Below, in pieces: positions 1,580 through 44,434 of a stretch of DNA of 44,499 bases; the stretch's first letter is position 1, and each line of letters opens with the position of its first letter. This stretch comes from an uncultured Planctomycetia bacterium (GTDB lineage: Bacteria > Omnitrophota > Gorgyraeia > 2-01-FULL-45-10), in NCBI GenBank assembly GCA_964534705.1, contig CAZHPY010000004.1, positions 1 through 44,499 on the forward strand, in the 5' to 3' direction. Both the position numbers and the translations under genes were made by a program. The notes under the pieces are model-generated. The model did not search any database. It was given only the letters and a program-made list of their open reading frames with translations, and was not told the origin of the DNA.

Positions 1580-1607
1580 CTCCCAACTCCCAGTTCTCAA
1601 CTCCCGA
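1580..1607 (-). repeat. CTCYCAR heptamer tandem (x4), purine-rich TTGGGAG-like on the coding strand
   Basis: The units are ctcccaa ctcccag ttctcaa ctcccga. The tract overlaps the last codons and stop of aroE. Confidence 0.7.
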
Positions 1608-2454
1608 CTATATCAAGAGCTTCTTTCAACGCCTTCTTCATTACAGAGACCGGCGCCTTCTTCCCTGTCCACAGTTCAAAAGCTATGGCCCCCTGGTATA
1701 AAAGCATACCCAGGCCCGTCGTTGCGTTCAGTTTTAACCTGGATGCTTCGCGCACAAGTTTTGTTGCCGGGCGGTTATAGACCAGATCATATACGCGAAG
1801 TCCCGGATGCAGATAATTAACGTCTATGGGAGAAGGGTCGTCGTCTTTCATGCCGATAGGCGTGGCTTGAATAAAGAGATCGGCGTTTTTCAGGTCCTTT
1901 TCGAAGTCCCCCCTCTTCATGACTTCCAACTTATGCCAACTGTAATACTTATCGAAATGTTTTTTCAGCTCTGCCGCCATATGCTCATCTATATCGGTAA
2001 CATACATCTTTTTTGGACCGTTTCCCAGATACATTATTACTGCACGGGCCGCTCCGCCGGCCCCCAGGACAAATACCGTCTTTCCTTCCGGCTCAAACTT
2101 AAGGTCCTCCACAAGGGACCTGTAAAAACCCGGGCCATCCGTATTAAAACCCGTCAGCCTGTCGCCATCAACCTTAACAGTGTTGACAGCGCCGAGCCTT
2201 TCGGCATGCTCATTCAAGATCCCGTTCTTCTCCAGGAATTCCCTGGCTTTTACCTTGTGCGGGATGGTAATGTTCACACCCGAGATGTTATTTTTAGGCA
2301 GGCCTTTCAGAAAATCATCGAGGCCTTCCGGAGGGACGTCGAAAAGCTTGTATTCTGCGTCTATTTTAAGGGCTTTGAATGCGGCATTATGCATGGCGGG
2401 AGAGAGCGAATGCCCAACCGGATGGCCGATAAGTCCATAAGTGTGTTTTGCCAT
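1597..2454 (-). CDS. aroE: shikimate dehydrogenase
   Basis: Motifs are GLIGHPVGHSLSP, NITIPHK and the GAGGAARA Rossmann motif. The ATG overlaps the leuA stop (TAATG). Confidence 0.9.
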   Translation of the reverse strand: MAKHTYGLIGHPVGHSLSPAMHNAAFKALKIDAEYKLFDVPPEGLDDFLKGLPKNNISGVNITIPHKVKAREFLEKNGILNEHAERLGAVNTVKVDGDRLTGFNTDGPGFYRSLVEDLKFEPEGKTVFVLGAGGAARAVIMYLGNGPKKMYVTDIDEHMAAELKKHFDKYYSWHKLEVMKRGDFEKDLKNADLFIQATPIGMKDDDPSPIDVNYLHPGLRVYDLVYNRPATKLVREASRLKLNATTGLGMLLYQGAIAFELWTGKKAPVSVMKKALKEALDIVGS

Positions 2455-3965
2455 TATTTTCTGTGCAAAAGCTTATTTATGGCGTTGACGTAAGCCTTGA
2501 TGCTTGCTTCTATGATGTCGGTGCTTGCGCCCCTGCCTGACACGACCGCGCCTTTTGATCCAATCTTGACCGATACTTCTCCGAGAGCGTCTTTGCCGCT
2601 AGTGACAGACTTTATCTGGTAATCCAGCAATTTGCCGCCTGTTTTGACTATCTTGTCGATGGCCTTGTAGCATGCATCGACAGGGCCGTCACCGCCTGAA
2701 GAACTTTCAAAACTTTTACCTTTATACCTTATCTTTATAGTAGCTGAGGGCTTTACGCTATCGCCCGAGGTAATATAAAAATGTTCCAGCTTCACTTCTT
2801 CCGGGATCTTTGATATTTCCTCATCTACTATGGCCTCAAGGTCCTCATCAAATATTTCTTTTTTCTTGTCTGCCAGCGCTTTAAAACGGTCGAATGCCTT
2901 TTCTACCTGGTCCTCTTTCAGGACAAACCCCAGGCTGGACAGCCTCTCCTTAAAGGCATGGCGTCCGGAATGCTTTCCCAGGACAAGTTTTGTCCCGGTC
3001 ACCCCGACATCCTCCGGCTTCATTATTTCGTAAGTGATCCTTTCTTTCAATACCCCGTCCTGGTGTATGCCGGATTCATGCGCAAACGCATTCAATCCTA
3101 CTATTGCCTTGTTAGGCTGGACCGGCATGCCTGTCAGCTTGGAGACAAGCCGGCTGGTCTTGAACAGTTCCTTTGTATTAATATCTATCCTCATGTTCTT
3201 AAAAATATCGTTACGCGTCCTTATGCCCATTACGATCTCTTCCAGCGAAGCATTCCCGGCTCGTTCGCCAAGGCCGTTGATAGTGCATTCGACCTGCCGT
3301 GCGCCATTCAGCACCGCGGCCAGGGAATTCGCCACACCCAGGCCCAGGTCATTATGGCAATGCACGCTTATAACGGCATTGCCTATGTTGGGGACGTTAT
3401 CTTTTATCCCTTTTATCAGTTCCGCAAATTCGAACGGAGTGGTGTACCCTACCGTATCAGGGATGTTGACCGTTTTGGCCCCGGCTGCTATCACGGCTTC
3501 GACGACTTTATACAGGAAATCCCGTTCGGTCCGCGAAGCATCTTCGGGTGAAAACTCAACATCGCCGCATCTGTTCCTTGCGTATTTTACGGAAGAAGCG
3601 GCGAGTTTCAATATCTCGTCCTCGGCTTTTTTCAGCTTATACTTCATGTGGATCTTTGAAGTGGCCAAAAATACGTGGATACGGGATCTCTTTGAGTCCT
3701 TCAGCGCATTATACGCGGCATCTATATCCTTTTCCATGGCGCGCGCCAGGCCGCATATGACAGGCCCCTTCACATCTTTCGAAACGCGTTTTACCGATTC
3801 GAAATCGCCTTCGCTGGATATGGGAAACCCGGCTTCTATGACATCAACGCCCAGGACAGCAAGCTGCCTCGCTATCTCAACCTTCTCGTTGATGTTCATG
3901 CTCGCGCCCGGGCACTGCTCTCCGTCGCGTAATGTCGTATCGAATATTATTATTTTTTCATCCAT
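2454..3965 (-). CDS. leuA: 2-isopropylmalate synthase
   Basis: Motifs are [10 protein letters not shown] and [13 protein letters not shown], with a C-terminal LeuA-type regulatory domain. Length is 503 aa. Confidence 0.9.
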
Positions 3966-4942
3966 GGCATCATGTCTCTTAAGCTCTTCCCTACTTTTTC
4001 GATCTGATGTTCATCACCCTGCTTTAAAAGATTGTTAAAGTTGCACCTTCCGGTCTCATTCTCTTTTATCCATTCGCGCGCGAATTTGCCCGTCTTGATC
4101 TCCTTCAGCATCTTCTCCATCGCCTTCCTGGTCCTCTCTGTTACGATCTTCTTGCCGCGCGTTAAGTCGCCATAACAGGCCGTGTTGGAAACGCACCGTC
4201 TCATGCCTCCGATACCTTTTTCCTGTATAAGGTCTGTTATCAGTTTCAATTCATGTAATACCTCAAAATAAGCGATCTCGGGCTGATAACCGGCCTTAAC
4301 CAGTGTATCGAATCCCGCTACTATAAGTTCGCTTACTCCGCCGCAAAGCACTGCCTGCTCGCCAAAAAGATCTGTTTCCGTCTCCTCTTCAAAAGTAGTT
4401 TCGATAACGCCTGCCTTTGTACCGCCTATACCCTTCGCATAAGCAAGCGCCGTCTTTAATGCATTGCCTGTTGCGTCCTGATATATTGCGACCAGGCACG
4501 GAACGCCTTTCCCTTCTTCATACATCCTTCTCACAAGGGCTCCCGGGCCTTTGGGCGCTATCATTACAACATTGATCTTCTTGGATGGCTTTATCTGTTT
4601 AAACCTTATATTGAACCCATGGGAAAATATCAGCGTTTTTCCCTTGGTCATATTTTCGGCAATATCATTCTTGTAGACTTTTGCCTGGACATGGTCTTCC
4701 GTCAATATCTGGACTATATCAGCGGCTGCGGATGCCTCCTTGGCCGATACGGGATTAAAACCGTCTGCTTTTGCCTGTTCATAATTTTTTGTCCCCGGCA
4801 GTTCGCTGACGACCACTTCGATGCCGGAATCCCTTAAATTCAGGCTCTGTCCACGGCCTTGTATACCGTATCCTATGACCGCTATTTTTTTACCCTTCAA
4901 AAGATCCAGGTCCGCATCGTTGTCATAATATACCTTTGCCAT
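3950..4942 (-). CDS. ilvC: ketol-acid reductoisomerase (class I)
   Basis: The N-terminus reads [12 protein letters not shown]...[21 protein letters not shown]. Length is 330 aa. Confidence 0.95.
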
Positions 4943-4959
4943 TGTTACTCCTCCTATTT

Positions 4960-5475
4960 TTATTCGTTAACTTCCGGCTTTCCCTCAGCCTTTAATCCTT
5001 TTTCGCTGGTATCCATTGCTATCCTGCCCGTCCTGACGACTTCCACTATACCGAACGGTTTAAGAAGCGCAAGCATGCCTTTTATTTTTGTGGCGTCGCC
5101 TGTTGCCTCTATACTGATGGTCTTAGAACCAGCATTAACTATCTTTGCCTCGGCGGATTCGACTGCCTCAAGTATTTCTTTTCTCGTCTTGGGGCTTACC
5201 GCGACTTTTATCAGCATCAGTTCCCTGTCTACGAATTCCCCTTCTTTAAAATCGACCACTTTTATTATATCGATCAGCTTATTAAGCTGCTTTTTGATCT
5301 GTTCGAGGGTCTTATCGTCTCCTTCCGATACTATGGTCATTCTTGAGACGCTCGGATCTTCAGTCTCGCCTACAGCCAGAGAACTTATATTGAACCCGCG
5401 CGCGCTGAACAATCCCGCTATGCGCGCCAGCACACCAAATTTATTCTCCACTAACACTGATATCGTATGTTTCAT
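4960..5475 (-). CDS. ilvN: acetolactate synthase small (regulatory) subunit
   Basis: It has an ACT domain starting [28 protein letters not shown]. It sits directly downstream of the large subunit. Confidence 0.9.
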
Positions 5476-14396: not shown

Positions 14397-15464
14397 TTAA
14401 AATCCTACTTGTTTTACCAAAAATACAAGGGACAGCATGCTTAAATTATGGGTTATGTGCACCGTTATGGATGAAACAAGCGTTCCCGTCTTCTCATACA
14501 GATAAGCAAGAAGTATGCCCAGCGCAAATATAGGGAAGAACCCTACTATATGGGTGTGCAGGGCGGCAAAAATAGCCGCCGTGATAACCGCCGACCACAG
14601 GGCTCCCGCATATTTTTTTAAAGCGCCATACATAAACCCCCTGAAAAACAGTTCTTCGATAAAGGGCCCCAATATGGCGGCAAAAAGGCTTGAATACATA
14701 AGGAAGGCCGCGTTCTTTTCTTTCAAAAACAATTCCACTACCGGCTGCCTTTCGGGGACATACTTGGTAATATTTATTATCACCGCCGTGACTGCTAATA
14801 TAACTATCAGGACCGGTATCAGGGCTATATATCCTACCACCCCATAAAATATATTTCTTATGCAATTCTTTAGTGAAAGCCCTAATGCCCTCAGGTCCTC
14901 CTTATACTGGACTACTGTAAAGTAAATAATGAAGAACACCGCCAACAAGTCGAGTATAGAGGTATTGAATACCATCCTGAAATTGTCCGCTTTGAAGATA
15001 GGGAATATCCTGGACCATAGGGCTTCGGAAATAATTATTATATAGCCAAAAAACAAGAACAGGATCACGACCTTGCATATATCCCATATCGTCCATTTTG
15101 CGCGTGGCGGGCTTAGCGTGCGTATATCCAGTTTTTTACTCAATATCGCAGCCGAAATAATAAAATCGGCCACTATGCCCAGAAGCATAAGTGCCGCTAT
15201 AAGGAGAGTGGTTAAACTAAAAAGAACTGCGATCCGTTTATTTTTATATAAAAATTCTTCTGTATCTTTCCTGCGCGAAAAAAACTCTTTATTAAAACGT
15301 TCTGTCCTTTCAGCCATGATGGCCGTTGTGGACCTGGGTTGCTCCTTTTTAACTTTAGCGGATTTTTGAGGATAGAAAAACATTATACCGCTGAAAACCA
15401 GGACAAATATCAACAATAATATGTAAAGTCTTTCCCTATTGATGAAACTTGATATTTTATTCAT
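14397..15464 (-). CDS. CPBP (CAAX) family intramembrane metalloprotease
   Basis: It is polytopic, with motifs EELFFRG, FAALH and HITHN. I place the start at MNKISS (15464), which forms an ATGA overlap with the upstream stop. Confidence 0.75.
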   Translation of the reverse strand: MNKISSFINRERLYILLLIFVLVFSGIMFFYPQKSAKVKKEQPRSTTAIMAERTERFNKEFFSRRKDTEEFLYKNKRIAVLFSLTTLLIAALMLLGIVADFIISAAILSKKLDIRTLSPPRAKWTIWDICKVVILFLFFGYIIIISEALWSRIFPIFKADNFRMVFNTSILDLLAVFFIIYFTVVQYKEDLRALGLSLKNCIRNIFYGVVGYIALIPVLIVILAVTAVIINITKYVPERQPVVELFLKEKNAAFLMYSSLFAAILGPFIEELFFRGFMYGALKKYAGALWSAVITAAIFAALHTHIVGFFPIFALGILLAYLYEKTGTLVSSITVHITHNLSMLSLVFLVKQVGF

Positions 15465-16828
15465 CCAGTAACTCCATATTTCCTCATCCTGAAAGATGCG
15501 CCCAGTGATAACGCCAAGGTCTCGCACCCTTTCAGGTCGACCTCCGGCAGATCAAGGCAGGTTACCTCGGTTTCTATCCCTTTTTGCACGCAATCTTTAA
15601 TGAACTTAACTACCGCAGCATATGTCTTTGCCCCGAATTCAGGTTTACAGATCTTCTCATACAGGCCTTCGTTATCAGTATTCAGGCTCACCGAGACCTT
15701 ATCTATGACACCGGCAAGCTCTTTAACTACGGGCCCGTTATTTATAAGGTCTCCGTGGCCATTAGTAACAAGCCTGATCGTGGCACCCTTTGCCTTCAGG
15801 GCCTTTGCGACCGCTTTTACGGTATCTACCCTTGCCGTCGGCTCGCCATACCCGCAGAAGACTACCTCTTTATATTTTTTTGGGTCAGGCCCAACGGCCT
15901 TTAATATCTCTTCCTCTGTCGGTTCTTTGTTAAGCCTGAGATCATGCCCTTTAACAAAAGCTGTTTGGGCCCGGACGCAAAAATAGCAGTTATTCGTGCA
16001 CCTGTTCGTTATGTTCAAATAAAGAGAATCGCGTATTTCATATGCTATTTTGGACCTATCCTCATCAACGCCCAGCTTAAACAGTTTATTTGCATTATGA
16101 GTGGTTATCCTCTCTATATCGCCCTTTGTAAGGTTGGTTATCCGTGACCATTCATCGACTAAATATGTCAGATATGACGGTTCGTTGCGCTTGCCCCTCC
16201 TGCCTTCGGGCGCAAGATAAGGGGCATCCGTTTCCAGTAAAACCTTTTCTATGGGCACAGTTTTTGCCAGCTCCCTCAGGTTGCCGGCATTTTTAAATGT
16301 CAAATTGCAGGTAAATGATACGTAGAAACCCATGCCGAGACATTCATCTAAAAACTGTCTAGTACCAGAGAAGCAATGAATGACGCCCTTTAGTGCTGCG
16401 TATTCTTTTAAGATGCTCAAGGTATCGTCATCCGCCTGCCTTGAATGGATTATCAGCGGCAGCCCTGACCCCTGGGACAACCGTATAAATTTCCTAAAAA
16501 CCTCTATCTGCATGTCCTTAGGCGAAAGATTCCTGTAATAATCCAGCCCCACCTCGCCTATCGCAACGATCTTTTCTGCGGCGGCCAATGCCTTCAGCTC
16601 ATCGAATGTTTTTTCCGTAACAGTTTGGGCGTCATGCGGATGTACACCAACGGTGGCAAAAACGGCCTCATATTTTTTCGATAACTCTACGGCGCGCCGG
16701 CATCCTTCCAGGGAACTGGCCACGTTTATTACTCTTACCACGCCTTTTTCCCTGGCCCTGTCTAAAACAGCATCCCGGTCCTGATCGAAATCCTTAAAAT
16801 CAAGGTGGCAATGGGTATCTATTAACAT
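15461..16828 (-). CDS. fusion protein: TatD-family metal-dependent hydrolase (N) + radical SAM domain (C)
   Basis: TatD motifs are LIDTHCHLD, GEVGLDY, IIHSR, IHCFSG and LETDAPYL. A CTNNCYFC (CX3CX2C) motif follows at 15977-16000. I place the start at MLIDTH (16828), 2 nt after the metG stop. Confidence 0.75.
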   Translation of the reverse strand: MLIDTHCHLDFKDFDQDRDAVLDRAREKGVVRVINVASSLEGCRRAVELSKKYEAVFATVGVHPHDAQTVTEKTFDELKALAAAEKIVAIGEVGLDYYRNLSPKDMQIEVFRKFIRLSQGSGLPLIIHSRQADDDTLSILKEYAALKGVIHCFSGTRQFLDECLGMGFYVSFTCNLTFKNAGNLRELAKTVPIEKVLLETDAPYLAPEGRRGKRNEPSYLTYLVDEWSRITNLTKGDIERITTHNANKLFKLGVDEDRSKIAYEIRDSLYLNITNRCTNNCYFCVRAQTAFVKGHDLRLNKEPTEEEILKAVGPDPKKYKEVVFCGYGEPTARVDTVKAVAKALKAKGATIRLVTNGHGDLINNGPVVKELAGVIDKVSVSLNTDNEGLYEKICKPEFGAKTYAAVVKFIKDCVQKGIETEVTCLDLPEVDLKGCETLALSLGASFRMRKYGVTG

Positions 16829-16830
16829 AA

Positions 16831-18387
16831 TTATTTGTTTTCTATGCGAGGAAAAAGCGGATTGGATTTTTTGATCGAGGATCCCGCCTTCAGCATTCCC
16901 CATGATTTCCCGTCGGAGACATTCATTTTAGGCGCATATTCTTCCATACCTAATTGGGCCATGATGCTATCGGCGGTAGCCGGCATAAAAGGATGTATTG
17001 AAAGAGAAACTACCCTTAAGGATTCCAAGAGGCCGTAAAGCAACTGTGATAATTCTTCCTGCCTGTCCTCTTTAGCCAGGGCCCACGGCTTGGAATCTTC
17101 TATCAATTTATTTGCGATATTTATCACTTCCCATACTTTTGTAAGCGCTGCCACAAAATCCAGCTGTGGCATGGCTTTTTCCATTTCATCCGCCAATCCC
17201 AGCGACTTGGCCTTCAATTCTTCTGCGCCTTTTACGCATTGGCACTTTGACACATCGGCGCTTGGCACTTTGCCTGCAAAATATTTCTCGACCATCGTTA
17301 AAGTCCTGTTAAGCAAATTACCCAGGTCATTGGCAAGATCGCTGTTATACCTTGAAATCAGGGTCTCCTCGCTGAAAGCGCCATCAAGGCCAAAAGGCAC
17401 TTCCCGTAAAAGGAAATACCTATATGCGTCTATGCCATAACGCTCTATCAGGGACAACGGGTCAACGATATTGCCCTTGGATTTCGACATCTTCTCGCCT
17501 TTCACCACCCACCAGCCGTGCGCGAATATCGTTCTCGGCGGTTTTAACCCGAGCGCATGCAGCATTATGGGCCAGTAAACGGCATGATGGCGCAGTATAT
17601 CTTTACCTATGACATGAAAATCGGCCGGCCAGTATTTTTCGAGCCTTGCCATGTCTTCTGGATAGCCTATCCCTGAAATATAATTTATCAGGGCATCAAA
17701 CCATACGTATGTAACGAAATTCGTATCGAAAGGCACTTCTATGCCCCAGGACATGCGTTTCTTTGACCGCGATATGCACAGGTCGAGAAGGGGTTCTTTC
17801 AGGAATCCGAGTACTTCATTTTTACGAAATTCCGGTTTTATGAAATCCGGGTTAGACTTAATATAATCTATCAGCCAACCCTGATATTCGGATATTTTAA
17901 AAAAGTAATTTTCTTCGTCGAGCTTCTCCAGGTGCCTTTTGCAATCCGGGCATACGCCCGCATCCGCCTGGGCCTCTGACCAGAACGTCTCGCAGGGCGT
18001 ACAGAACCACCCTTTATAGACTTTTTTATATATCTTGCCTTCTTTATAAAGTTTTTCCAGCACAGTCTGGACTGCTTTTGCGTGCGCCGCGTCCGTCGTC
18101 CTTATAAAATAATCGTACTTTATATTCAGTTTATCCCAAAGCCCCCTGAACACCGGAACGATCTCATCTACGAACCGCTTTTCCTCTCCTTCTTTAAAGC
18201 CTCTTGCAAGGGTCGCCTTCTCTATTTTTTCGCCATGCTCATCCGTACCCGTCATAAAGAAAACATCATATCCTTTAAACCTGTAATAGCGCGACAGGGT
18301 ATCGACCGCTATATTTGTATATGAATGGCCTATATGCGGCTTTGAATTCACGTAATATAATGGTGTTGTTATATAGAATTTGGGCAT
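16831..18387 (-). CDS. metG: methionine--tRNA ligase
   Basis: It has HIGH (PHIGHSY), KMSKS and a CTPC...CPDC zinc knuckle. Confidence 0.95.
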   Translation of the reverse strand: MPKFYITTPLYYVNSKPHIGHSYTNIAVDTLSRYYRFKGYDVFFMTGTDEHGEKIEKATLARGFKEGEEKRFVDEIVPVFRGLWDKLNIKYDYFIRTTDAAHAKAVQTVLEKLYKEGKIYKKVYKGWFCTPCETFWSEAQADAGVCPDCKRHLEKLDEENYFFKISEYQGWLIDYIKSNPDFIKPEFRKNEVLGFLKEPLLDLCISRSKKRMSWGIEVPFDTNFVTYVWFDALINYISGIGYPEDMARLEKYWPADFHVIGKDILRHHAVYWPIMLHALGLKPPRTIFAHGWWVVKGEKMSKSKGNIVDPLSLIERYGIDAYRYFLLREVPFGLDGAFSEETLISRYNSDLANDLGNLLNRTLTMVEKYFAGKVPSADVSKCQCVKGAEELKAKSLGLADEMEKAMPQLDFVAALTKVWEVINIANKLIEDSKPWALAKEDRQEELSQLLYGLLESLRVVSLSIHPFMPATADSIMAQLGMEEYAPKMNVSDGKSWGMLKAGSSIKKSNPLFPRIENK

Positions 18388-37083: not shown

Positions 37084-37692
37084 ATGAAATACGATCATAT
37101 CGAAAGCGACCGTAATATCGTTGAAGGCTGCATAAATAAAGACTTGGCATGCTGGAACGCCTTGATATCAAAATACTCCAGGCTTATATACATATCCATA
37201 GAAAAACGCCTTAAAAAATACGGTTTTACGCTTCCGCAGCATGACATAGAAGATATCCGCCAAAATGTACTGTCTTCTATATGGAAAGAAGACAAGCTGA
37301 AAGATGTGACAAGCAGGGAAAATATTTCTTATTGGCTGTCCATAGTATCCGGAAATGCCGCGATAGCATACATGCGAAAGCCGGATACAAGAAATATAAA
37401 TAAGACATTATCGCTTGACGAAACAAGATATGAAAAGAGCGCATATGATACGATAGCCGCCGGCACATCAGGTCCCGATAGCCATATTCTGAGAAAAGAA
37501 ATGGAAGAAAAAATAGATAAAGCCATCAAGGGGCTTTCATCAAAAGAGAAACTTATTATAAGGCTTATGCTCTTCCATGAAAAAAAGCACTATGAAATCG
37601 CGGAAATGCTCGGCGTGCCGGAGGGTACGATATCGTCCTGCATCAAAAGAGCAAAGGATAAATTAAAAGGTTGTTTACAGGATTTTAAATAA
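37084..37692 (+). CDS. ECF-type RNA polymerase sigma factor
   Basis: It is about 200 aa, with region 2 (NALISKYSRLIYISI...DIRQNV) and a region 4 HTH (YEIAEMLGVPEGTISSCIKRAK). Confidence 0.85.
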   Translation: MKYDHIESDRNIVEGCINKDLACWNALISKYSRLIYISIEKRLKKYGFTLPQHDIEDIRQNVLSSIWKEDKLKDVTSRENISYWLSIVSGNAAIAYMRKPDTRNINKTLSLDETRYEKSAYDTIAAGTSGPDSHILRKEMEEKIDKAIKGLSSKEKLIIRLMLFHEKKHYEIAEMLGVPEGTISSCIKRAKDKLKGCLQDFK

Positions 37693-37696
37693 AAAA

Positions 37697-37723
37697 TGCA
37701 AGAATTTTGACCATTTTAGCGTC
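37697..37723 (+). promoter_or_regulatory. ECF-type promoter-like motif TGCAAG-N17-CGTC (copy 1)
   Basis: It lies between the sigma stop (37692) and the anti-sigma start. It is part of a ~45-nt block repeated at 38296-38345. Confidence 0.4.
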
Positions 37724-37744
37724 TTATATATGTGGGAGGTTTTC

Positions 37745-38194
37745 ATGACAGAAACAGGAAACAAAGTAAACATTCATCCTTCAGAAGCCGAATTATCCGA
37801 TTATCTTGGTGGTGTTTCGGCAGGCAACGACAAGACAAAACTGGAAAATCACATAGCCTGCTGCCCTGAATGCCTGACAAGGATAGTTTCCGCTTATGAA
37901 GCAGTAAGGGACTTCGAAAAAATGAATCCGGACAAGAAAAGGAAGGGGCGTATCATGAAAAGGCTTAACATTTATTTAATTCTTGCCACTGTCTCATTTA
38001 TACTATCGTTTATCATACCTCAGTATTTTATACAGCTTCTCACCGCTACTCTACTTTTAGGTATAAAATGGGTAGCGGATGCCAAATCCACAAAGATGCT
38101 TGTCATGATATATGAGGCCTGGAAAAATGGCGGTGAAAAAGAAGCGTCCCGTATTTTAAAGACGCTTGACCAAAACCCAAAAAACCGCCTGTAA
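37745..38194 (+). CDS. anti-sigma factor (zf-HC2 type) with C-terminal TM segments
   Basis: It has the HIACCPECLTRI zinc motif followed by hydrophobic helices. I take ATG 37745, which is preceded by GGGAGG. The track start at 37730 would lie inside the promoter-like block. Confidence 0.7.
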   Translation: MTETGNKVNIHPSEAELSDYLGGVSAGNDKTKLENHIACCPECLTRIVSAYEAVRDFEKMNPDKKRKGRIMKRLNIYLILATVSFILSFIIPQYFIQLLTATLLLGIKWVADAKSTKMLVMIYEAWKNGGEKEASRILKTLDQNPKNRL

Positions 38195-40570: not shown

Positions 40571-43500
40571 TTATGCGGCTTCCGCGAACCTGCGTGCAGC
40601 TTCGCGCAGGACCTTCAGTTTCTCATGTTCCACTATTCCGGATACTTTACCGAGAGCGTCTATTATCTTCTTTACTATATCTGTTATGTCAAAAATAGTG
40701 ACATATCTCAGGTCCGTAACTGGGTCTCCATAGACTTTAAAATAATAGTACCTGGCAGTATGGACCTTTGCAGTTACATCGGCTATTGTTTCAGCATAGG
40801 CAATTCTTTCATCCGCAGACTTCCCCTTATTCAACTCGTCTATCAAAGCCTTCTGTTTATCATTCGTGACTATCGCAGCGACTTTTATGCCGGACCTCGC
40901 CAATTTTGGCAAAAATATTCCCAGTCCGTTATCAAAAGTAACTTTTTCTGAAAAGATAAATGTTGATTTATCCTTTTCAAGTATATTTTCTATACGTAAA
41001 AGGCGCGATAGCTCCTCAAGGAACACGGTTGTGTTTAGATGATTCTCATACCATTCCTGATGAAGAGGCTGTTCATCCTCTGAGGGTTCTTCTGATACAA
41101 TGGGCAGCGCCGGCACAAAGTCCATTAATGTGGCATCTTCGCCGATCTTTGCATCAAGGCTTTTCACATGTATCTTGCCCAAGGCAAGTAAAACTGCTCC
41201 GATATCATATCCCATACTATCGGCAAATTCAGTCATTAGTTCTGTTTCCGACAATTCCCTGCTGTGCTCCATTTCGGATCTAACCTTGAATTCCCTGAAC
41301 TTTCTTCTGATCTGCCTCAGGCTTTCCGGCTGATCTCGATAATACAATATCAAGTTGATGCATTTGAGATATGTATGTAGATAAGCAATATAGGACGACT
41401 GCCTCAGATCATTCTTAAGCAGATTAGCATATATATTATGCCGCATGCTTGCCTCCAACAGCAGTTCATAGGCCAGCGATTTTCTGCTTTCATCTTTGTA
41501 CTTTTTTATCCGATCCAGGTGCCTTTCTATCAACCAGTCTCTTGCACCCACCCTTATTTTTTCATCGCATGAAAATAATAAAAGCCCCGCTTTTCCATAA
41601 TCATCTTCTGATATCGTTTTTACTTTCAACAAGGCAGATAAGCAGGCCTTCTCTTCTTCAGTTGCCTTGCGTATATATTCTTTTAGCTCCTCCCGCTTCC
41701 CTGAATCTTCAGCCAATATATCTATTAAACCGTAAACGGTACTTAATCCGAATTGGCGCAACAACAGCCTGAATTGCAGGTATTTCTTTTCTTCATCATT
41801 CAAAAGACGGTCTAATGGAGGCATTTTTGCCTTTTCTTTACGCATATATGAAAAGTTTCTGGTAATAAATTCGGGGTTTGCTATTATTTTTGCCACCAAA
41901 ACATTAGGGATGTTAAACCCCGGTATCACTGCCTTTAACTTCATAAATTCAGTTGCATAACTTTTTATCTCGTTTTCTTTCCGTGAACCGCGTAGTACAA
42001 GAGAAAGGCAATAGCTCTCGTTTATGCCAACCTCTTTTAGGGTTTTGATAATACCCTTTATCTCTCCTTCCTTCCGGGAGCTTATAAGGACAGAGGCAGT
42101 ATGAAATCCCTCGCTGATGCCAAACCCCTTAAGGACATTGACAAGGCCTTTCATCTCTTCTCCCTTGCGTGAACTTGCGAGGATAAGGGCAAGATGATAA
42201 GATTCGGTAATACCAAGCTCCTTCAGGGTACCAACAATAGATCTTATTTCTTTTTCCTTCCGGGCACCACGCAATATTATGGAAAGGTGATAACCCTTGG
42301 TTATCCCAAGTCCTTTCAAGGTCCTGACAATGCTCTTTATCTCTGTTTCCTTCCGGGAACTTGTAAGGATATAAGCAAGGTGGGCCCCTTCGGTTATACC
42401 AAGCTCTTTCAATGTATCTACAATAGATTTTATCTCTTCTTCCTTCCTTGCGCTGCGCAGTATGAGTGAAAGATTCGCGCCTCCTTTTATGCCAGCCCTT
42501 TCCAGTGTATTAATAATATCCACTATCTCTTTTTTCTTCCGGGCGCTGTGCAATATAAGGGAAAGGTGATAACCCTTGGTTATCCCAAGTCCTTTCAAGG
42601 TCCTGACAATGCTCTTTATCTCTGTTTCCTTCCGGGAACTTGTAAGGATATAAGCAAGGTGGGCCCCTTCGGTAATGCCCAGCCTTCTCAGTGTTTTTAC
42701 AAGAGATTTTACTTCTTTTTCCTTCCGGGAACTTGTAAGGATAGGTGCAAGATAAGCACCTTCTGTGATACCAAATTTCTTCAAGGTTTTGATAATGGTT
42801 TTTATCTCTTCTCCATTGCGTGAATTTGTAAGGATAGGGGCAATATAAGCACCTTCTGTAATGCCAAAATCCCTCAGTGTGTTAATAAGCTCTTTTACCT
42901 CTTCTTCCTTCCGCGAACTTGTAAGAATAAGAGCAAGATGATAACCTCCGGTTATGCCAAGCATTTTAAGGGTATTTATAAGACTCTTTATTTCTTTTTC
43001 CTTCCGGGAACTATGCAATATCATGGCCATATGAGCACTCTTAGTAATGCCAAACATCTTCAGGGTCTTGACAACCGATCTTATCTCTTCTTTTTCCCGT
43101 GCGCTGTGTAGAATCTGGGCAAGATGAGTGCTGCCGGTAATCCCAAGTTCTTTTAGAGTTCTGATAAAAACCTGGACATCTTCTGCTTTTCTGGAACTCG
43201 CGAGTATGCTGGCAATATGGTTGCTTTCTGTGATACCAAGCATTTTAAGGGTATTTATAACAGAGCTCACATCTTCTGCTTTTCTGGAACTTATGAGTAT
43301 GCGTACAATATGATGGCTTTCGGTGATATAAAGCTCCTTTAGGATATTAATAAGAACTATCATCTCATCTTCCTTACGGGAGCTGCGCAGGATCAGGGTG
43401 AGATGATTGCTCTTAAATACAAAAGATCCGTTATCTTTACACAGGAATGATAACCGCAGAACTTCTAACCTCTCATTCAGCTTTATAATCTTTGATATTT

Positions 43501-44434
43501 TATCTGCCTGCGCAGGACTGAAATATGGCTTGTTATTTTCACATAACCCCTGCAGCAACCTGCTTATTTCTTTATCAACATCCTTTCTTTTGATCTCTTT
43601 GCCGTCAGCTTTCGCCAGAAGCGCCCTTACATCACTGATGACTTTATCAAGAACTTTGCTGTCGGTGCGCCGAGCCTTATCTCCTGCCATCATATAATCT
43701 CTGTTAATAACATCCGGGTGCATGGCAAAAACAAGGTTTACGAATTCCCGGACCAGTAATTTATCTATAATACGGCCGTTTCTCTCTACCTGATGTTGTA
43801 ATCTGACATTATCTTTTTCAAAATTCTCTCGTGCTGATCGTATAAAAGAATTTATATTCTGCGGAGTATCCGGGTTTTTGGCTATTAACCCTTCGTCAAA
43901 TAATTCTTTCGCCCTCGTAGACCTTGCCCTTATCTCATGAAAAAGTCTGGCTATTATCTTACGCCTGCCTTCTTTTGAGTGCTTTTCATCTTCTAAAGCA
44001 AACGCTGAAATATATGCGCCTGCATGCCCCCATGCTCTTCTGCCTTCAAATAAAGGTAGGTCATCTTCGTTTTTCACAAATATGACCTGTATTTTACCTC
44101 CGGAAGATCTAAGGGTTGTATTAAGTCTTGTAAGCATATTTGCTGCGCCACAGGCATCGATAATGCCCATGAACTCTTCTTCAAGATATGGAATAGCTGA
44201 TAGACTCCTGGCTTTAGTGGAATTTTGTCTTATAAGCTCATCTATAGGGCCTTGATGCGCGACAAGGCGCTCTTCCATCATGTCATATAGTTTCTGGTAG
44301 ATTTTAGGGTTTCCTGCTTGGGGGGCAAGTGTACTTGTATCAGCCAAAACGATTGTGTCGGCGCAAAATAGGCATACTAAAACCATCTCTACAGCCTTGA
44401 ACAAAACATTATATTTGTCTTTATGAAAAGTCAT
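40571..44434 (-). CDS. 1287-aa orphan repeat protein
   Basis: It is a single uninterrupted ORF convergent with comM. It comprises an unassigned ~340-aa N-terminal region with one hydrophobic segment, 16 x 31-aa tandem repeats, a degenerate sigma-70 region 2-3-like segment and an unassigned C-terminal domain. Repeat periodicity is in frame. I saw no catalytic motif. There is no obvious SD before ATG 44434, so the exact start is uncertain. Confidence 0.8.
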   Translation of the reverse strand: MTFHKDKYNVLFKAVEMVLVCLFCADTIVLADTSTLAPQAGNPKIYQKLYDMMEERLVAHQGPIDELIRQNSTKARSLSAIPYLEEEFMGIIDACGAANMLTRLNTTLRSSGGKIQVIFVKNEDDLPLFEGRRAWGHAGAYISAFALEDEKHSKEGRRKIIARLFHEIRARSTRAKELFDEGLIAKNPDTPQNINSFIRSARENFEKDNVRLQHQVERNGRIIDKLLVREFVNLVFAMHPDVINRDYMMAGDKARRTDSKVLDKVISDVRALLAKADGKEIKRKDVDKEISRLLQGLCENNKPYFSPAQADKISKIIKLNERLEVLRLSFLCKDNGSFVFKSNHLTLILRSSRKEDEMIVLINILKELYITESHHIVRILISSRKAEDVSSVINTLKMLGITESNHIASILASSRKAEDVQVFIRTLKELGITGSTHLAQILHSAREKEEIRSVVKTLKMFGITKSAHMAMILHSSRKEKEIKSLINTLKMLGITGGYHLALILTSSRKEEEVKELINTLRDFGITEGAYIAPILTNSRNGEEIKTIIKTLKKFGITEGAYLAPILTSSRKEKEVKSLVKTLRRLGITEGAHLAYILTSSRKETEIKSIVRTLKGLGITKGYHLSLILHSARKKKEIVDIINTLERAGIKGGANLSLILRSARKEEEIKSIVDTLKELGITEGAHLAYILTSSRKETEIKSIVRTLKGLGITKGYHLSIILRGARKEKEIRSIVGTLKELGITESYHLALILASSRKGEEMKGLVNVLKGFGISEGFHTASVLISSRKEGEIKGIIKTLKEVGINESYCLSLVLRGSRKENEIKSYATEFMKLKAVIPGFNIPNVLVAKIIANPEFITRNFSYMRKEKAKMPPLDRLLNDEEKKYLQFRLLLRQFGLSTVYGLIDILAEDSGKREELKEYIRKATEEEKACLSALLKVKTISEDDYGKAGLLLFSCDEKIRVGARDWLIERHLDRIKKYKDESRKSLAYELLLEASMRHNIYANLLKNDLRQSSYIAYLHTYLKCINLILYYRDQPESLRQIRRKFREFKVRSEMEHSRELSETELMTEFADSMGYDIGAVLLALGKIHVKSLDAKIGEDATLMDFVPALPIVSEEPSEDEQPLHQEWYENHLNTTVFLEELSRLLRIENILEKDKSTFIFSEKVTFDNGLGIFLPKLARSGIKVAAIVTNDKQKALIDELNKGKSADERIAYAETIADVTAKVHTARYYYFKVYGDPVTDLRYVTIFDITDIVKKIIDALGKVSGIVEHEKLKVLREAARRFAEAA
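42281..42394. repeat. perfect 114-nt direct repeat, copy A
   Basis: By eye it is identical to 42560-42673. The offset is 279 nt, which equals 3 repeat units. Confidence 0.85.
42560..42673. repeat. perfect 114-nt direct repeat, copy B
   Basis: By eye it is identical to 42281-42394. It encodes TEGAHLAYILTSSRKETEIKSIVRTLKGLGITKGYHLS in both places. Confidence 0.85.

Follow-up and report, generated by a model that had tools for sequence, protein, structure and literature searches.

Textbook sigma-70 factors pair domain 4 with domain 2, with or without domain 3, and the choice of promoter is fixed in these domains. A sigma-2-type module without domain 4 can also bind core RNA polymerase, as in phage T4 gp55, which is essentially sigma-2-like, and in SigO-RsoA of Bacillus subtilis; in both of these systems promoter targeting comes from another part or protein. 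Transcription can likewise be redirected by delivered proteins, namely the TAL effectors, and predatory or parasitic lifestyles are suspected in the phylum Omnitrophota. Long proteins of this phylum mostly carry signal peptides or transmembrane helices (10.64898/2026.06.07.730766), and prokaryotic mTERF-like tandem repeats ("pTERF"), which occur mostly in Bacillota, bind DNA specifically (PMC11417379). Here, we analyze a stretch of 44,499 nt (positions 1 to 44,499 of the forward strand of contig CAZHPY010000004.1, NCBI GenBank assembly GCA_964534705.1), hereafter referred to as the window, from an uncultured Planctomycetia bacterium with the GTDB lineage Omnitrophota; Gorgyraeia; 2-01-FULL-45-10, and describe a gene encoding a modular protein in which an array of tandem repeats is followed by a domain that is very probably related to sigma-70 factors.

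The gene is a minus-strand open reading frame (ORF) at 40571..44434 (stop codon at 40571-40573) that encodes a modular protein of 1287 aa, in which residue i begins at nucleotide 44434-3(i-1); all features of the protein given below lie on this strand. We conclude with good confidence that residues ~963-1113 are a remote homolog of sigma-70 domain 2 (regions 2.1-2.4), domain 3 (regions 3.0-3.1), and the region 3.2 linker. The original prediction, made from the sequence alone, had matched three blocks of this segment to E. coli RpoD. All three are present exactly as stated, with positions aa 964-979 (nt 41498-41545), 1013-1028 (nt 41351-41398), and 1059-1107 (nt 41114-41260), the RpoD strings used for the comparison are genuine (they start at RpoD residues 375, 427, 476, and 492; RefSeq NP_417539), and the spacing is similar, with 49/46/33 residues in the window protein versus 52/49/30 in RpoD. 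The prediction stands to the extent that the segment is very probably a divergent relative of sigma regions 2 and 3 in the proposed register, downstream of the repeats; the accompanying description of a degenerate remnant had to be given up because the segment forms the C-terminal two-thirds of a conserved domain of ~270 aa with 13 relatives.

These relatives were collected in a full HMMER search with residues 900-1124 against 1.84 billion representative proteins, which returned 13 other proteins (E values from 4e-75 to 6e-7), all aligning along nearly the whole query, and no ordinary sigma factors. Local iteration placed the limits of the domain at aa ~839-1110, that is, about 270 aa. The resulting family alignment, A1, comprises 16 domain copies (P0008 is made up of three complete units, with three copies of the domain, in one polypeptide), and in it L952, S955, R961, A988, and Y1018 are invariant, whereas P872, Y885, G950, L953, L968, Y1002, and L1023 are nearly so. 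A helical tandem-repeat array precedes the domain in every member in which upstream sequence is present; the repeats are of the 31-aa type found in the window protein in most members and of a different, 35-36-aa type in P0016 and P0019. Because the domain stands behind another type of repeat in these two proteins, the coupling of array and domain holds across repeat families. One relative is an ORF at locus L006 from a metagenome-assembled genome of Candidatus Omnitrophota, which is 67% identical across the domain and has the same N- and C-terminal modules together with a single repeat, and a search for related loci with the window protein alone gave one Omnitrophota locus. A homolog search with A1 returned only the fragment P0009. 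Two relatives are very long (3310 aa in P0012 and 3404 aa in P0017), and in them the unit is set among many other modules, much as in the long modular proteins known from Omnitrophota. The family is one for which we found neither annotation nor description.

The homology to sigma factors emerges from comparisons of profiles and of predicted structures. Using hhalign, A1 matched an alignment of four E. coli sigma factors with P=9.5e-5, and an alignment of 12 diverse sigma factors with a probability of 87.7%, P=3.4e-6, and a score of 49.1 over 136 columns, in a register that runs from region 2.1 to region 3.2. The set of 12 consisted of RpoD, RpoS, FliA, and RpoH from E. coli and eight plasmid-borne FliA/WhiG/SigF/SigB/SigD genes, the latter being used for diversity since a homolog search from the E. 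coli sigma alignment (A2) gave near-identical or chimeric RpoD sequences only; the hhalign score rose with this more diverse alignment. In control comparisons, reversed alignments scored 13-16, 150 shuffles reached no more than 24.5 and 250 block shuffles no more than 24.8, and other parts of the same proteins scored 20.0 (header and repeats) and 14.8 (C-terminal module) against sigma. A search of A1 against 177,635 distinct PDB chains gave four matches with an E value below 0.1, namely sigma-H (3mzy_A, 0.0097), two fibrinogen coiled-coil chains, and Staphylococcus aureus sigma-B (8x6g_H, 0.04), and the alignment to sigma-B extends from region 2.1 through region 3.2 over 137 profile positions.

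The AlphaFold2 (AF2) model built from A1 has a predicted local distance difference test (pLDDT) score of 81.6 and a predicted template modeling (TM) score (pTM) of 0.70, and it is confident for domain residues 10-255. Its helices correspond one to one with those of sigma regions 2.1 (model residues 124-142), 2.2 (148-164), 2.3/2.4 (181-199), 3.0 (203-222), and 3.1 (229-240 and 244-250). In the window protein, the part resembling sigma domain 2 (regions 2.1, 2.2, and 2.3/2.4) spans aa 963-1034 (41333..41548), as delimited by hhalign, the 8x6g_H alignment, and the AF2 model; it holds the first two blocks of the original prediction and contains the invariant A988 and Y1018 as well as the nearly invariant Y1002. 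The part resembling domain 3, delimited by hhalign and AF2, follows at aa 1035-1086 (41177..41332) with an LPES motif and a long helix (3.0) and then two short helices (3.1). Next comes a region-3.2-like linker (SLDAKIGEDATLMDFV), assigned by hhalign, that passes into an acidic linker (aa 1087-1125, 41060..41176), the net charge being -10 across aa 1092-1130. The region-3.2-like stretch is disordered in the model (pLDDT below 50), as is expected of a sigma finger off the polymerase. When the model was compared with 350,542 PDB chains by Foldseek, sigma chains made up 49 of the 50 top matches; these were from RNA polymerase holoenzymes of eight species and from sigma groups 1-3, including Thermus, Mycobacterium, and Streptomyces chains, E. 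coli sigma-70 and sigma-S, Pseudomonas sigma-28, and S. aureus sigma-B. In a second library, the BFVD viral models, the named top matches were phage sigma factors.

A number of results weigh against this assignment. Similarity to RpoD in pairwise comparison is at chance level: in BLASTP against full-length RpoD the best match in the sigma register was SLDAKIGEDATLMDFV with E=1.1 in a single comparison, the Smith-Waterman score against RpoD 371-530 was 36 versus 29.6+/-5.1 in 1000 shuffles (z=1.25, with 12.7% of the shuffles equaling or exceeding it), and the global alignment scored under the shuffle mean. The Sigma70_r2 (PF04542) and Sigma70_r3 (PF04539) profiles, which had been proposed as the check, gave no match at E<=10, and neither did any other sigma model of Pfam in the whole protein, in aa 870-1160, or in the 16 family members, nor any sigma model of NCBIfam in the whole protein or in aa 870-1160, these scans returning sub-threshold noise only. 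A single-sequence phmmer search of all PDB sequences likewise found no sigma factor and gave only a designed TPR (E=0.03), in the N-terminal part. The hhalign probability, 88%, is below 95%, and with only ~14 family representatives the alignments are shallow. The PDB profile search places a fibrinogen coiled coil on a par with sigma-H, and the sigma-H match itself puts RGYD..LSLD on the helix-turn-helix (HTH) of sigma domain 4, so that the identity of the last three helices as sigma-3 rather than sigma-4 is not unique. The Foldseek matches to sigma are individually weak, with E values of 0.04-0.7 and TM scores of 0.2-0.3 (~0.25), although such low scores may arise because a compact model is compared with sigma chains that are stretched over the holoenzyme, rather than domain by domain. 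Finally, two sigma signatures have decayed: W433/W434 are lost, being T1021/Y1022 in the window protein and variable across the family, and of the region 2.2 signature for core binding (D403-L-x-Q406-E407) only a part survives, in the form S-L-A-x-E.

Some of these results are what a chance resemblance would give, in which charged helical sequence yields generic matches to helical bundles; the pairwise statistics, the lack of Pfam and NCBIfam sigma matches, the Foldseek E values all above 0.01, and the fibrinogen match can all be read in this way. We nonetheless consider this explanation largely refuted and very unlikely. The hhalign score is far from those of the shuffles and grew with sigma diversity, structural matches so concentrated in one protein family recur as sigma factors in a second library, and the fibrinogen match falls elsewhere in the domain (profile positions 15-101), whereas the PDB profile search and both hhalign comparisons agree on the register from 2.1 to 3.2, which counts against chance. 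At the level of the family profile, and probably also of the fold, similarity to sigma factors is clearly above chance, and had the Pfam profile criterion been used alone, the sigma idea would have been wrongly refuted.

At the level of single residues, the original remark that the WWIRQ residues are not conserved is borne out by the alignment of T1021/Y1022 to W433/W434; yet the equivalents of several neighboring sigma-70 positions are kept, including Y430 (Y1018, invariant in the family), F427 (Y1015, also aromatic), I435 (L1023), R436 (K/R1024), and P453 (P1036), and further kept positions are E407 (E990) and Y394 (Y979). The helix equivalent to region 2.2 belongs to the most highly conserved stretches of the family, which is also true of region 2.2 in sigma factors, and the 3.2-like motif LSLD....L.D..P is among the better conserved parts of the domain. 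The original prediction also noted that no region 4 HTH follows, and our results agree: the hhalign match ends in region 3.2 (template position 186 of 290) and is followed by the acidic linker and an unrelated module that scores at background against sigma, and the window protein has no Pfam Sigma70_r4 (PF04545) match, in contrast to an extracytoplasmic function (ECF) sigma factor encoded nearby at 37084-37692, which matches Sigma70_r4 at 1.6e-10. No region 1.2 is detectable in the window protein.

Ahead of the sigma-like segment, the domain has an N-terminal part (aa 835-962, 41549..41932), recognized in A1 and in the AF2 model, which is confident across it. This part opens as a degenerate half repeat and carries the conserved motif LP....PLT.EDK.YI.FRL.LR, and comparing it with sigma by hhalign gave nothing (P=0.51). 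A reading of PLTEEDK.YI.FRL (aa ~875-890) as sigma region 1.2 (compare PLLTAEEE) was left unsupported by the same result. We also rejected the segment as a degenerate continuation of the 31-aa repeats, since the repeat hidden Markov model (HMM) finds nothing significant past aa 834 (best E=0.15, aa 913-922); the resemblance to a half repeat is confined to the first ~20 residues of the domain.

A domain of this build could be a sigma-derived fold that has taken on another job, serving as a C-terminal cap or dimerization domain of the solenoid, or as a holder of single-stranded or melted DNA beside duplex-binding repeats, and making no contact with polymerase. We regard this as rather unlikely, although a good deal fits it: neither the core-binding residues D403 and Q406 nor W433/W434 are retained, the solenoid is prolonged by the degenerate half repeat with which the domain opens, the domain is modeled as one compact body (pTM 0.70), and the protein is apparently exported. 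Set against this are the 3.2-like motif, which has no obvious role off the polymerase and is yet well conserved, and the conservation, as in sigma factors, of the helix equivalent to region 2.2.

The repeats are preceded by a "header" (aa 262-338, 43421..43651) for which AF2 predicts helices and a small hairpin (pLDDT ~90) and which has a pattern, VDGK..RK...LF...QA.KI...RKL..RL, that recurs in P0008 (three times), P0010, P0012, P0013, and P0014; a header precedes the array in those family members whose N-terminal part is present. The array itself (aa 339-834, 41933..43420) consists of 16 tandem repeats that the repeat HMM places at an exact spacing of 31 aa, corresponding to a DNA period of 93 nt at 60-66% identity. 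AF2 modeled the header and seven repeats with a pLDDT of 88.4, a pTM of 0.75, and two helices per repeat, and a Foldseek search with this model matched MTERF4, MTERF1, MTERF3, and TAL effectors with probabilities of ~1.0 (TMq 0.42-0.59) as well as designed toroids; for the TAL effectors dHax3, AvrBs3, and PthXo1, probabilities were 0.8-1.0, TMq was 0.45-0.59, and E values were 0.1-2. Within the repeat, L11 and R15 never vary and there is a conserved loop, S13-S14-R15-K16; positions 5, 9, 12, 18, 25, and 29 vary most, and the array has a net charge of +29. The array, as modeled, fits a nucleic-acid-binding solenoid. The likeness to mTERF is one of fold only, as Pfam mTERF (PF02536) has no match at E<=10 in the whole protein, and no TAL effector code of repeat-variable residues is readable at positions 12/13, position 12 varying (T/R/H/I/A) and position 13 being mostly S.

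We made two further observations on the repeats. A three-repeat segment of 279 nt within 42224-42781 is duplicated at 80% identity and includes an identical stretch of 93 nt (42281-42373 and 42560-42652), the protein repeats at aa 587 and 680 being identical, which suggests that the array has recently expanded from within. The 35-36-aa repeats of P0016 (aa 1-110) and P0019 (aa 1-130), for example GLNSSQAVRIAVSSAPDKAKKVYRNLMKDEELREY, have a first helix and loop that look more TALE-like than those of the 31-aa repeat.

Header, array, and sigma-like domain are framed by two conserved terminal modules. The N-terminal module (aa 1-262, 43649..44434) is 52-63% identical in alignment A6 to the N-termini of P0003, of the protein encoded by the second gene of locus L001, and of the L006 ORF, and it also fronts other cargo; profile searches gave it no Pfam match and no sequence relative in PDB. 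It begins with basic residues and a hydrophobic, signal-peptide-like segment, read from the sequence (aa 10-32, VLFKAVEMVLVCLFCADTIVLAD, 44339..44407), followed by a conserved TLAP..GNPK motif, and the hydrophobic segment is conserved in the three proteins just named. From this signal-peptide-like start we infer that the protein is exported. The C-terminal module (aa 1126-1287, 40574..41059) is unlike sigma domain 4 and ends in FAEAA; this stretch of ~162 aa (STFIFSEKVTFDNGLG...ARYYYFKV...) is 63-71% identical in seven proteins with unrelated upstream parts, which elsewhere include parts that resemble a C2H2 zinc finger, an HATPase domain, or a GNAT domain, and it too has no Pfam match and no PDB sequence relative by profile search. 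At locus L001, the protein encoded at 1600-4977 joins the shared N-terminal module of 250 aa to a Fic-type motif (HPFIDGNGRASR) and other unrelated modules, and the gene just upstream (P0005, L001:156-1049) bears the shared C-terminal module, an arrangement that points to the two terminal modules as a frame for swappable cargo.

Several sequence features of these modules deserve mention. Two cysteines (LxCLxC) within the hydrophobic segment are invariant, and directly after the segment (aa 33-45, TSTLAPQAGNPKI, 44300-44338) lies a TL[AR]P motif, which takes the form TLAP..GNPK in the window protein, P0003, L001, and L006, and TLRP or ALRP in P0008, P0010, P0012, and P0013; the motif may act as a signal for sorting or processing. 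When the C-termini of the window protein, P0008, P0010-P0013, P0015, P0017-P0019, and L006:1607-5326 were compared, most full-length family proteins were found to end in small residues, for example, FAEAA (40574-40588 in the window), IASAA, INASA, ISHAA, ISQAA, RRAA, RQAA, and ISAAA. In the giant members, modules are also separated by internal linkers that fit [SA][SA][SA]G, such as SSSAG, PSSSG, and SSSSG between the three units of P0008 and AAAG in P0015, and P0012 contains PSSAGLDF.SIEV four times. Judged by their sequences, these linkers look like module boundaries or polyprotein processing sites, with the C-terminal AA as the first half of such a site.

The signal-peptide-like start makes an ordinary role as the cell's own sigma factor unlikely. 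An unusual sigma factor or regulator of the producer could still be imagined, with the N-terminus as a membrane anchor and the bulk of the protein in the cytoplasm, tethering the cell's own RNA polymerase to loci specified by the repeats or to the membrane. The presence of a sigma2-sigma3-like domain and the location of the gene among chromosomal housekeeping genes would suit such a regulator. We consider it highly improbable, however, because the same terminal modules frame unrelated cargo (Fic, GNAT-like, HATPase-like), because three units in one polypeptide, as in P0008, are unlike any housekeeping regulator, and because basic residues precede the hydrophobic segment, which by the positive-inside rule puts the bulk of the protein outside.

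Instead, we propose that the unit of header, solenoid, and sigma2-sigma3-like domain couples the targeting of nucleic acid to docking on polymerase, a proposal that we hold tentatively and place somewhat nearer to an even chance than to improbability. The repeat solenoid would bind DNA (or RNA) and so take over the targeting job of sigma domain 4, the sigma2-sigma3-like domain would dock on the RNA polymerase core, its domain 2 part contacting the clamp helices of beta-prime, and the acidic linker that resembles region 3.2 would lie in the active-site/RNA-exit channel, with the result that RNA polymerase would be recruited to, or trapped at, sites chosen by the repeats. The polymerase in question would more likely be that of another cell, prey or host, than that of the producer, as suggested by the signal-peptide-like N-terminus, the cargo-swapping family, and a phylum suspected of predation or parasitism, although this site of action is less certain than the docking mechanism. 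A point that counts against docking is that a signal peptide places the protein away from RNA polymerase unless it is delivered to another cell, and no delivery system was identified. Taken together, the statement of homology, mechanism, and site of action is one to which we give an even chance. A bolder version, which we think unlikely, is a "programmable sigma," in which the array would read DNA in place of domain 4, the sigma2-sigma3-like domain would load core RNA polymerase, and an Omnitrophota cell would export such units, either one by one or joined in polyproteins, into bacteria that serve as prey or hosts and so redirect or jam their transcription; if true, this would be the bacterial equivalent of phage sigma take-over and of TAL effectors in one.

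The array appears, from its modeled fold, to be of the kind whose successive repeats each read a step of a nucleic-acid sequence. If the domain behind it still binds polymerase, it would represent a new mode of targeting bacterial transcription, a means by which Omnitrophota with a predatory or parasitic lifestyle might attack the polymerase of other cells, and a natural template for engineered sigma factors of programmable sequence specificity. Even if it does not, it would still be a new and very divergent branch of the sigma fold and would offer a first point of entry to one module of the long Omnitrophota proteins, which are poorly understood.

The other genes of the window are of a housekeeping nature, with MetRS, CysRS, holB, IspD, MlaEF, ClpC, McsB, LolCDE-like, LysS, SpoVG, YraN, and ComM among them. 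The region 37084-38194 on the plus strand begins with the ECF-type sigma factor mentioned above (202 aa), which matches only Pfam Sigma70_r4 and r4_2 and not r2. The protein encoded next, of 154 aa, has a hydrophobic segment and a CPEC motif and looks like an anti-sigma factor. A functional link between this pair and the repeat protein was dropped, as the pair lies on the other strand and the SpoVG, YraN, and ComM genes stand between. Elsewhere in the window, one ORF at 15461-16903 on the minus strand joins a TatD-type DNase domain to a radical SAM domain, an unusual fusion.

Both the sigma fold and TALE/mTERF-like solenoids are known, and a sigma2-sigma3 domain that lacks sigma-4 and is fused to such an array is something of which we found no description; the pTERF paper (PMC11417379) makes no mention of sigma, and the word does not occur in two reports on long Omnitrophota proteins (bioRxiv 10.1101/2023.11.21.568195 and 10.64898/2026.06.07.730766). 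Compared with the sigma-70 family, and especially with group 3 (the SigB/SigF/FliA type, as in 8x6g_H), the window domain very probably has the same order of helices, 2.1, 2.2, 2.3/2.4, 3.0, and 3.1, and after them an acidic 3.2 linker in extended form. It differs in having neither domain 4 nor a detectable region 1.2, in the loss of W433/W434 and most of D-L-x-Q-E, in a conserved extension of ~125 aa before region 2.1, and in its setting within a protein of 1287 aa, behind repeats and a signal-peptide-like N-terminus. The proteins gp55 and SigO-RsoA are, unlike the window protein, small and cytoplasmic, and their targeting partner is a sliding clamp with a co-activator or a separate sigma-4-like subunit. 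With the TAL effectors, mTERF, and pTERF, the window repeats share a superhelical solenoid (predicted; TMq up to 0.59), and they have a conserved basic loop with a variable residue just before it; they are 31 aa long rather than 33-35 as in TALEs, and they do not show a two-residue hypervariable code amid near-identical repeats. Like the long modular proteins of the same phylum ("Archaeovorins" and multi-enzyme giants), which have signal-peptide or transmembrane N-termini, the window protein appears to combine an N-terminus of this type with chained modules of cytoplasmic type, although it measures only 1287 aa. Finally, whereas TAL effectors carry a eukaryotic activation domain, the effector end of the window protein is sigma-like.

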